A stretch of 64,000 nt of DNA from Escherichia coli (GTDB lineage: Bacteria > Pseudomonadota > Gammaproteobacteria > Enterobacterales > Enterobacteriaceae): NCBI RefSeq assembly GCF_045037415.1, contig NZ_CP173438.1. One strand, 5' to 3'. Shown here one piece after another: positions 44,917 through 46,274 of the stretch. The position numbers and the translations under genes were made by a program. Under the pieces are notes generated by a model that made no database searches, was not told the DNA's origin, and saw only the letters and a list, made by a program, of their open reading frames with translations. Position 1 is the first letter of the stretch; the number at the start of each line of letters is the position of its first letter.

Positions 44917-46274
44917 ATGAGTAATGTTATTGCATCGCTTGAAAAGGTACTCCTCCCTTTTGCAGTTAAAATAGGAAAGCAGCCACACGTTAATGCAATC
45001 AAAAATGGCTTTATTCGCTTAATGCCGTTAACCCTTGCGGGGCCATGTTTGTATTAATTAACAACGTTTTTCTAAGCTTTGGGGAGGGGTCGTTTTTTTA
45101 TTCCTTAGGTATTCGCCTGGATGCCTCAACCATTGAAACACTTAATGGTCTGAAAGGTATTGGCGGCAACGTATATAACGGAACATTAGGGATAATGTCT
45201 TTAATGGCACCGTTCTTTATTGGCATGGCGCTGGCAGAAGAGCGTAAAGTCGATGCGCTGGCGGCCGGGTTGTTATCCGTTGCAGCATTTATGACCGTCA
45301 CCCCATATAGTGTCGGTGAGGCCTATGCGGTTGGCGCAAACTGGTTAGGTGGGGCGAATATCATCTCCGGGATTATTATTGGCCTGGTGGTGGCAGAAAT
45401 GTTTACCTTTATTGTTCATCGTAACTGGGTCATTAAGTTACCTGATAGCGTTCCGACATCGGTTTCGCGCTCTTTCTCAGCATTAATTCCTGGTTTTATT
45501 ATTCTTTCCGTGATGGGGATTATTGCCTGGGCGTTGAATACCTGGGGCACCAACTTCCATCAGATCATTATGGATACGATCTCAACCCCACTGGCATCGT
45601 TGGGTAGCGTGGTAGGCTGGGCCTATGTGATCTTTGTTCCACTGCTCTGGTTCTTCGGTATTCATGGCGCGCTGGCGCTGACCGCACTGGACAACGGCAT
45701 TATGACGCCTTGGGCGCTGGAAAATATCGCGACCTATCAGCAATATGGTTCCGTCGAAGCGGCGCTGGCAGCCGGTAAGACCTTCCATATCTGGGCCAAG
45801 CCGATGCTGGACTCCTTTATTTTCCTTGGTGGCAGTGGTGCGACTTTAGGCCTGATCCTGGCTATCTTTATCGCCTCTCGACGTGCTGATTATCGTCAGG
45901 TGGCAAAACTGGCGCTGCCGTCTGGCATCTTCCAGATTAACGAACCGATTCTGTTTGGTCTGCCAATTATCATGAACCCGGTGATGTTTATCCCGTTTGT
46001 ACTGGTACAACCGATTCTGGCGGCAATCACCCTGGCAGCGTACTACATGGGCATTATTCCACCGGTGACCAATATTGCACCGTGGACCATGCCAACCGGT
46101 CTGGGAGCCTTCTTTAACACCAACGGTAGCGTCGCCGCATTGCTGGTCGCACTCTTCAACCTTGGTATCGCAACGTTAATTTATCTGCCCTTTGTTGTGG
46201 TCGCTAACAAAGCACAAAACGCGATTGATAAAGAAGAGAGCGAAGAAGATATCGCTAACGCCCTGAAATTTTAA
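44917..46274 (+). pseudogene. chbC: PTS chitobiose EIIC, disrupted by a -1 frameshift in a G-run (or a homopolymer sequencing error)
   Basis: ATG at 44917 gives 46 codons ([10 protein letters not shown]...LTLAG then PCLY stop at 45055); EIIC continues in another frame from 45045 (MFVLINN...); GCGGGGCC has 4 G where GCGGGGGCC would restore ...LAGAMFVL... Confidence 0.7.

Follow-up and report, generated by a model that had tools for sequence, protein, structure and literature searches.

A one-base deletion makes chbC a recent, clonally inherited pseudogene in a sublineage of Escherichia coli O25b:H4-ST131

The gene for the EIIC permease of the chitobiose PTS, chbC, has lost one base in the Escherichia coli DNA analyzed here (a stretch of 64,000 nucleotides, hereafter the window), which has four Gs (G4) in place of five (G5) in a short run. 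We conclude with high confidence that this deletion is a real loss-of-function mutation, passed on vertically and of recent date, and that it marks a sublineage of ST131. The locus is an ordinary, recent, clonally inherited, lineage-specific pseudogene, already flagged by public annotation; slightly beyond the ordinary are only a candidate revertant (FCI29) and the recurrence of mutation at the same run.

Genes in the window are ordered nadE, osmE, chbB, chbC, chbA, chbR, chbF (celF), chbG, katE, and open reading frames (ORFs) and annotation confirmed that chbC lies within the chbB-chbC-chbA-chbR-chbF-chbG operon (Table 1). The remaining five chb genes are intact, as annotated at the identical locus of Ecol_AZ146 (NZ_CP018991.1). 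The window originates from E. coli O25b:H4-ST131, the label of several otherwise identical genomes. It is identical to Ecol_AZ146 over positions 1 to 32999 and 51613 to 64000, and over positions 33000 to 57000 (24 kb) at least 56 complete genomes differ from it by a single window-private base.

Table 1. Features of the chb operon in the window (coordinates count from the first base of the window)
Feature	Coordinates	Strand	Basis and remarks
chbB, PTS chitobiose EIIB, intact	44512..44832	+	106-aa ORF; identical locus of Ecol_AZ146 annotated chbB, WP_000412169.1
chbB-chbC spacer	44833..44916	+	8-bp inverted repeat ACCGCAATATTTAAATTGCGGT at 44877-44898, just 5' of the chbC start
chbC pseudogene, PTS N,N'-diacetylchitobiose EIIC	44917..46274	+	ORFs, repair, PGAP "frameshifted" in Ecol_AZ146, NF007634
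First ORF, 46 codons	44917..45057	+	42 native ChbC residues, then out-of-frame PCLY; TAA at 45055-45057
G4 run, site of the one-base deletion (ancestral G5)	45039..45042	+	Within GCGGGGCC at 45037-45044
Second ORF, 409 codons, ChbC residues 44-452	45045..46274	+	Native frame; lacks a proper ribosome-binding site
chbA, EIIA, intact	46325..46675	+	ORF and annotation
chbR, AraC-type regulator, intact	46683..47525	+	ORF and annotation
chbF/celF, 6-phospho-beta-glucosidase, intact	47628..48980	+	Annotated 450-aa start; the raw ORF reaches further upstream
chbG, chitin disaccharide deacetylase, intact	48993..49751	+	ORF and annotation

The private base lies in codon 435 of astB (position 39175), where the window has T (TTG, Leu) and 1,005 of 1,005 matching complete genomes have C (TCG, Ser). 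Since the T is absent from all 1,005, it is private to the window isolate; it is either a true AstB Ser435Leu substitution or a base error of the window assembly.

The chbC gene measures 1,358 nt, against 1,359 nt when intact, and is split at codon 43 into ORFs of 46 and 409 codons, the second (ATG 45045) being in frame +2 (−1) relative to the first (ATG 44917); no single unbroken frame spans the whole permease. Addition of one G at the run in silico gave a single 1,359-nt ORF encoding 452 aa, which matched positions 1 to 452 of the 452-position profile NF007634 (the NCBIfam equivalog for ChbC, PTS N,N'-diacetylchitobiose transporter subunit IIC; curated cut-off, 760 bits) with 970.7 bits. The 409-aa ORF by itself scored 876.6 bits over profile positions 44 to 452. 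The two ORFs are not a chance pair, because they cover consecutive profile positions (1 to 43 by the first and 44 to 452 by the second). An earlier reading made from the letters alone (the sequence-only reading) had proposed chbC as the gene, the G-run as the site, and one added G as the repair; all of this, and every coordinate given with it, was borne out by the ORF reading, the 452-aa repaired product, and the profile match.

The residues upstream of the break belong to the conserved protein. ChbC of Bacillus cereus (PDB 3QNQ) is a PTS EIIC dimer of the elevator type, built of scaffold and transport domains (PMC7329351). It is homologous to the E. coli protein but a distant orthologue; it aligned over residues 5 to 442 (E = 8.8e-58), including the N-terminal segment lost here. 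The structure was used as evidence that residues 1 to 42 belong to the conserved fold. A hydropathy profile placed the first hydrophobic segment at about residues 30 to 56, so that the break at codon 43 cuts it in the middle, and either fragment of the split segment is probably too short in hydrophobic length to cross the membrane. The sequence-only reading had also allowed that reference chbC genes might start at the internal Met, with the upstream segment untranslated. This does not hold, as 5,320 of 5,394 complete genomes carry the gene in frame and the N-terminal 42 residues align with B. cereus ChbC; a natural start at M44 was ruled out by conservation of the N-terminus in the family profile and in 3QNQ.

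Intact chbC (1,359 nt, WP_000073030.1) is found in the ST131 reference EC958 and in 4/1-1, the run reading GCGGGGGCC in both of these and in FCI29, and K-12 chbC is also 1,359 nt long; by this comparison, the ancestral run is five Gs. Over 45.3 kb, a span reaching 405 nt into chbC, EC958 and the window differ at two sites only, the missing G and the window-private SNP. The same two differences, and no others, separate 4/1-1 from the window over 24 kb that takes in the whole chb operon. The exactly repaired allele occurs in an estimated 450 to 540 complete genomes (from evenly spaced rows of a ranked match list). Only two differences from EC958 in 45.3 kb mean that the lesion is recent, and its recency accounts for the undecayed remainder of the operon.

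A 73-nt probe centered on the G-run was searched against 5,426 complete E. coli genomes. The four-G probe was matched exactly in 74 of 5,394 complete genomes (1.4%), about 67 of them ST131-like, and only with a one-base gap, as expected of the in-frame allele, in 5,320 (98.6%). Carriers of four Gs derive from many countries and laboratories, and PGAP labels chbC "frameshifted" in the four-G genomes that were opened (Ecol_AZ146, N3, LZHX12, AST198, NR3736, OY019088, and 21368). Only the G4 allele can produce the 46-aa stub, and in a collection of about 15 billion proteins this exact product is indexed in 3,958 public-assembly blocks and the exact 409-aa product of the ST131 allele in 3,691; contigs in the blocks holding these products are mostly 50 to 200 kb long. 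With the allele or its product in 74 complete genomes and 3,958 blocks, a one-off homopolymer error confined to the window assembly is excluded.

The window itself contains no clade marker, the missing G and the private SNP being all that sets it apart from EC958 over 45 kb; for this reason, the marker search was extended to the next 45 kb in a comparison of Ecol_AZ146 with EC958. A single SNP was found there, a nonsense mutation (TGG>TGA) in the manganese efflux pump gene mntP, 79 kb from chbC and about 33.9 kb beyond window position 1 (position 477506 of the Ecol_AZ146 record, annotated "internal stop"). Of 53 complete genomes that carry the mntP-stop allele, 52 have four Gs at chbC (50 from the lists of four-G genomes and 2 found to be frameshifted on opening), whereas wild-type mntP is found in about 15 ST131-like genomes with four Gs. 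The mntP-stop group is thus nested inside the four-G group, a pattern that fits a single origin of the four-G allele followed by clonal spread. The nesting is not perfect, because FCI29 (NZ_CM172720.1, Bogota) carries the mntP stop with an intact five-G chbC (1242 to 2600 of a 3-kb extract otherwise identical to the window). FCI29 could be a true revertant, a recombinant, the bearer of a second mntP mutation, or a product of reference-guided homopolymer polishing. A literature search returned nothing relevant joining mntP with ST131 and nothing on FCI29.

The run has also mutated elsewhere. The same one-G deletion is found on at least three other chbC alleles, 37 to 39 SNPs from the ST131 allele, in N3, LZHX12 (identical to AST198), and NR3736 (chbC at 1412 to 2769 of the loci extracted from N3, LZHX12, AST198, and NR3736); the truncated products of such other-background alleles were indexed on 382 and 10 contigs, and a six-G (G6) allele with a product ending in LAGGHVCIN on 11. 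Given these recurrent deletions and the G6 allele, the run is an indel hotspot, if a modest one. Further breaks of chbC were seen along the way. In AVS0969 (NZ_CP124475.1), an ST131-type chbC is separately disrupted by IS1 (IS1B; 501 to 2635 of the extract), and in the 4.97-Mb genome CP026824.1 (2501 to 3853 of the extract), the same 46-aa stub is followed by three chbC fragments of 146, 79, and 96 aa, a more advanced decay. Another recurrent truncation, a 45-aa ChbC ending in LTLAGAMF with its stop two codons past the G-run, was indexed on 239 contigs. Across these alleles, chbC is evidently dispensable in several lineages.

Recurrence raises the question of whether the G-run is a contingency-like switch, reversibly turned on and off, with the off state positively selected in ST131 and in other lineages and not fixed by drift. 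The repeated deletion on at least three other alleles, with products on 382 and 10 contigs, the G6 allele on 11 contigs, the independent loss of chbC by IS1 in AVS0969, the further decay in CP026824.1, and the resemblance of FCI29 to a five-G revertant within the mntP-stop group would all suit such a switch. Simple-sequence tracts in phase-variable genes typically have 7 or more units, however, and the run here is far below such lengths, with five Gs in the wild type and four in the window. Four Gs occur in only 1.4% of genomes, and clonal series (eight AVS isolates; isolates 439, 446, 447, and 463) are uniformly four-G. Mixing of on and off states among close relatives was seen in FCI29, the one five-G genome among the 53 mntP-stop carriers, and G4 and G6 recur in other lineages; recombination, a second mntP mutation, or polishing guided by a reference would explain FCI29 equally well. 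We also know of no benefit from ChbC loss, which we count against a switch. With so few genomes affected, a five-base tract, and uniform clonal series, the run is unlike a phase-variable locus, and we hold it very unlikely that it is a selected on/off switch of this general kind. The more specific proposal, in which the G5 run at codons 41 to 43 is a recurrent reversible switch (with G5>G4 or G5>G6 as the off step and an occasional return to on, for which FCI29 would be the candidate) whose off state was favored by selection in a globally spread ST131 sublineage, is quite unlikely.

It is highly improbable, too, that chbC is still expressed in four-G isolates, with −1 slippage on G GGG or reinitiation at ATG 45045 supplying enough functional ChbC, full length or split. 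If tRNA-Gly slipped by −1 in the P site on G GGG, GCC-ATG would be read next, and rare slippage of this kind would rebuild the native LAGAM exactly and possibly leave trace activity. The second ORF overlaps the end of the first by 13 nt, stop included, with ATG 45045 only 10 nt 5' of the stop, and termination-reinitiation there could yield some truncated protein. The second ORF is, moreover, still open across the sublineage, and the other genes of the operon are intact. Against this, no X XXY YYZ slippery heptamer is present (the zero-frame codons are CUU GCG GGG CCA, allowing only a single-tRNA slip on G GGG), and no stimulatory RNA fold was found in the 88 nt downstream (−16.8 kcal/mol; z = −0.29), 78 of 200 shuffled sequences folding at least as well. 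The frameshifted arrangement is not a conserved recoding site, 98.6% of genomes (5,320 of 5,394) being in frame, and on these three grounds programmed −1 frameshifting is not supported. The only candidate ribosome-binding sequence for ATG 45045 is GGGG 2 nt upstream, too close to act as a Shine-Dalgarno sequence; any product from this ATG would have to come from reinitiation. A promoter/terminator scan found no internal promoter for the 409-codon ORF. The break also splits the first hydrophobic segment, with neither piece predicted to span the membrane. The open second ORF is accounted for by the recency of the lesion, neither EC958 (over 45 kb) nor 4/1-1 (over the whole operon) showing any other difference.

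The second alternative in the sequence-only reading, under which the strain has an intact chbC and the G was dropped by an error in sequencing or assembling the homopolymer, has a next to negligible chance of being correct. In its favor, runs of G are well known for such errors, a homopolymer error was the source of a false chbC lesion listed in a 454-sequencing study of K-12 (PMC3045373), the SNP at 39175 is absent from about 1,000 matching complete genomes, and the window is a perfect copy of no record in the collection. Against it, the identical G4 allele is shared by 74 complete genomes and thousands of independent assemblies (3,958 blocks) and tracks the linked mntP stop in 52 of 53 carriers, and errors are not inherited in this way. 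The same counts, with the PGAP label "frameshifted," support the first alternative of the sequence-only reading, that chbC is inactivated in this strain.

In the explanation that we prefer, an inherited loss of function, an ancestor of an O25b:H4-ST131 sublineage lost one G:C pair from the G5 run at chbC codons 41 to 43, most likely by replication slippage. Translation from the native start now ends after 46 codons; the other 409 codons are still open in the native frame but start partway through the first transmembrane segment and lack a usable ribosome-binding site. The EIIC permease of the chitobiose PTS is most likely absent or nonfunctional. Independent mutations of this run have arisen in other lineages of E. 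coli.

For chitobiose, the chb operon is normally not a cryptic one. The sequence-only reading had suggested that inactivation leaves the operon cryptic; the loss of chbC stands, and in place of "cryptic" the operon is better described as probably non-inducible through loss of its permease. Chitobiose induces chb via ChbR and relief of NagC repression (PMC4098024, PMC3551598, PMC7815308), and the induced chbBC intergenic RNA sponges the small RNA ChiX, which de-represses the chitoporin gene chiP (PMC4098024, PMC7815308). Because chitobiose must enter via ChbC to release NagC and activate ChbR, chbBCARFG, otherwise intact, should stay uninduced in four-G isolates; ChiP should in turn stay repressed, because the chbBC intergenic sponge for ChiX would not be made. 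Judged by this published circuit, loss of both chitobiose uptake and induction is most likely in these isolates.

The closest known system is chbC of K-12 (formerly celB), the EIIC gene of chbBCARFG, which is the same gene in the same operon order with the same neighbors (nadE-osmE-chbBCARFG-katE) and is 97.2% identical at the DNA level; the window departs from it in having G4 at codons 41 to 43 where the intact gene has G5, which gives ORFs of 46 and 409 aa. The lesion resembles the homopolymer-indel pseudogenes that mark host-adapted clones of Enterobacteria (sugar-gene decay of the Shigella type) in being a single-base indel in a short run, clonal, annotated "frameshifted," and located in a dispensable catabolic gene. 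Unlike those decayed clones, the chb operon in the window is at the very first step, with one lesion and the operon otherwise untouched. The literature searched contained no relevant paper connecting chbC or chitobiose with ST131.

For annotation, the locus should be called a chbC pseudogene, neither two genes nor an assembly error. For epidemiology, G4 provides a simple marker, read at a single site, for an ST131 sublineage that is large and has been sampled internationally; together, G4 and the linked mntP nonsense mutation would mark a subclade nested within it. Four-G isolates are predicted to be unable to import or respond to chitobiose, a small metabolic difference within a major pandemic clone, and current understanding of the chb system is unchanged. 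A pathogenicity island named after Ecol_AZ146 has been tied to subclade C2 in one paper, which is not a typing result. The window contains another pseudogene, a gene resembling type III effectors of the ShET2/EspL2 family in the thrS-yniD interval (about 59883 to 60907, minus strand), which carries the label "frameshifted; internal stop" in the annotation of Ecol_AZ146, where the sequence is identical.
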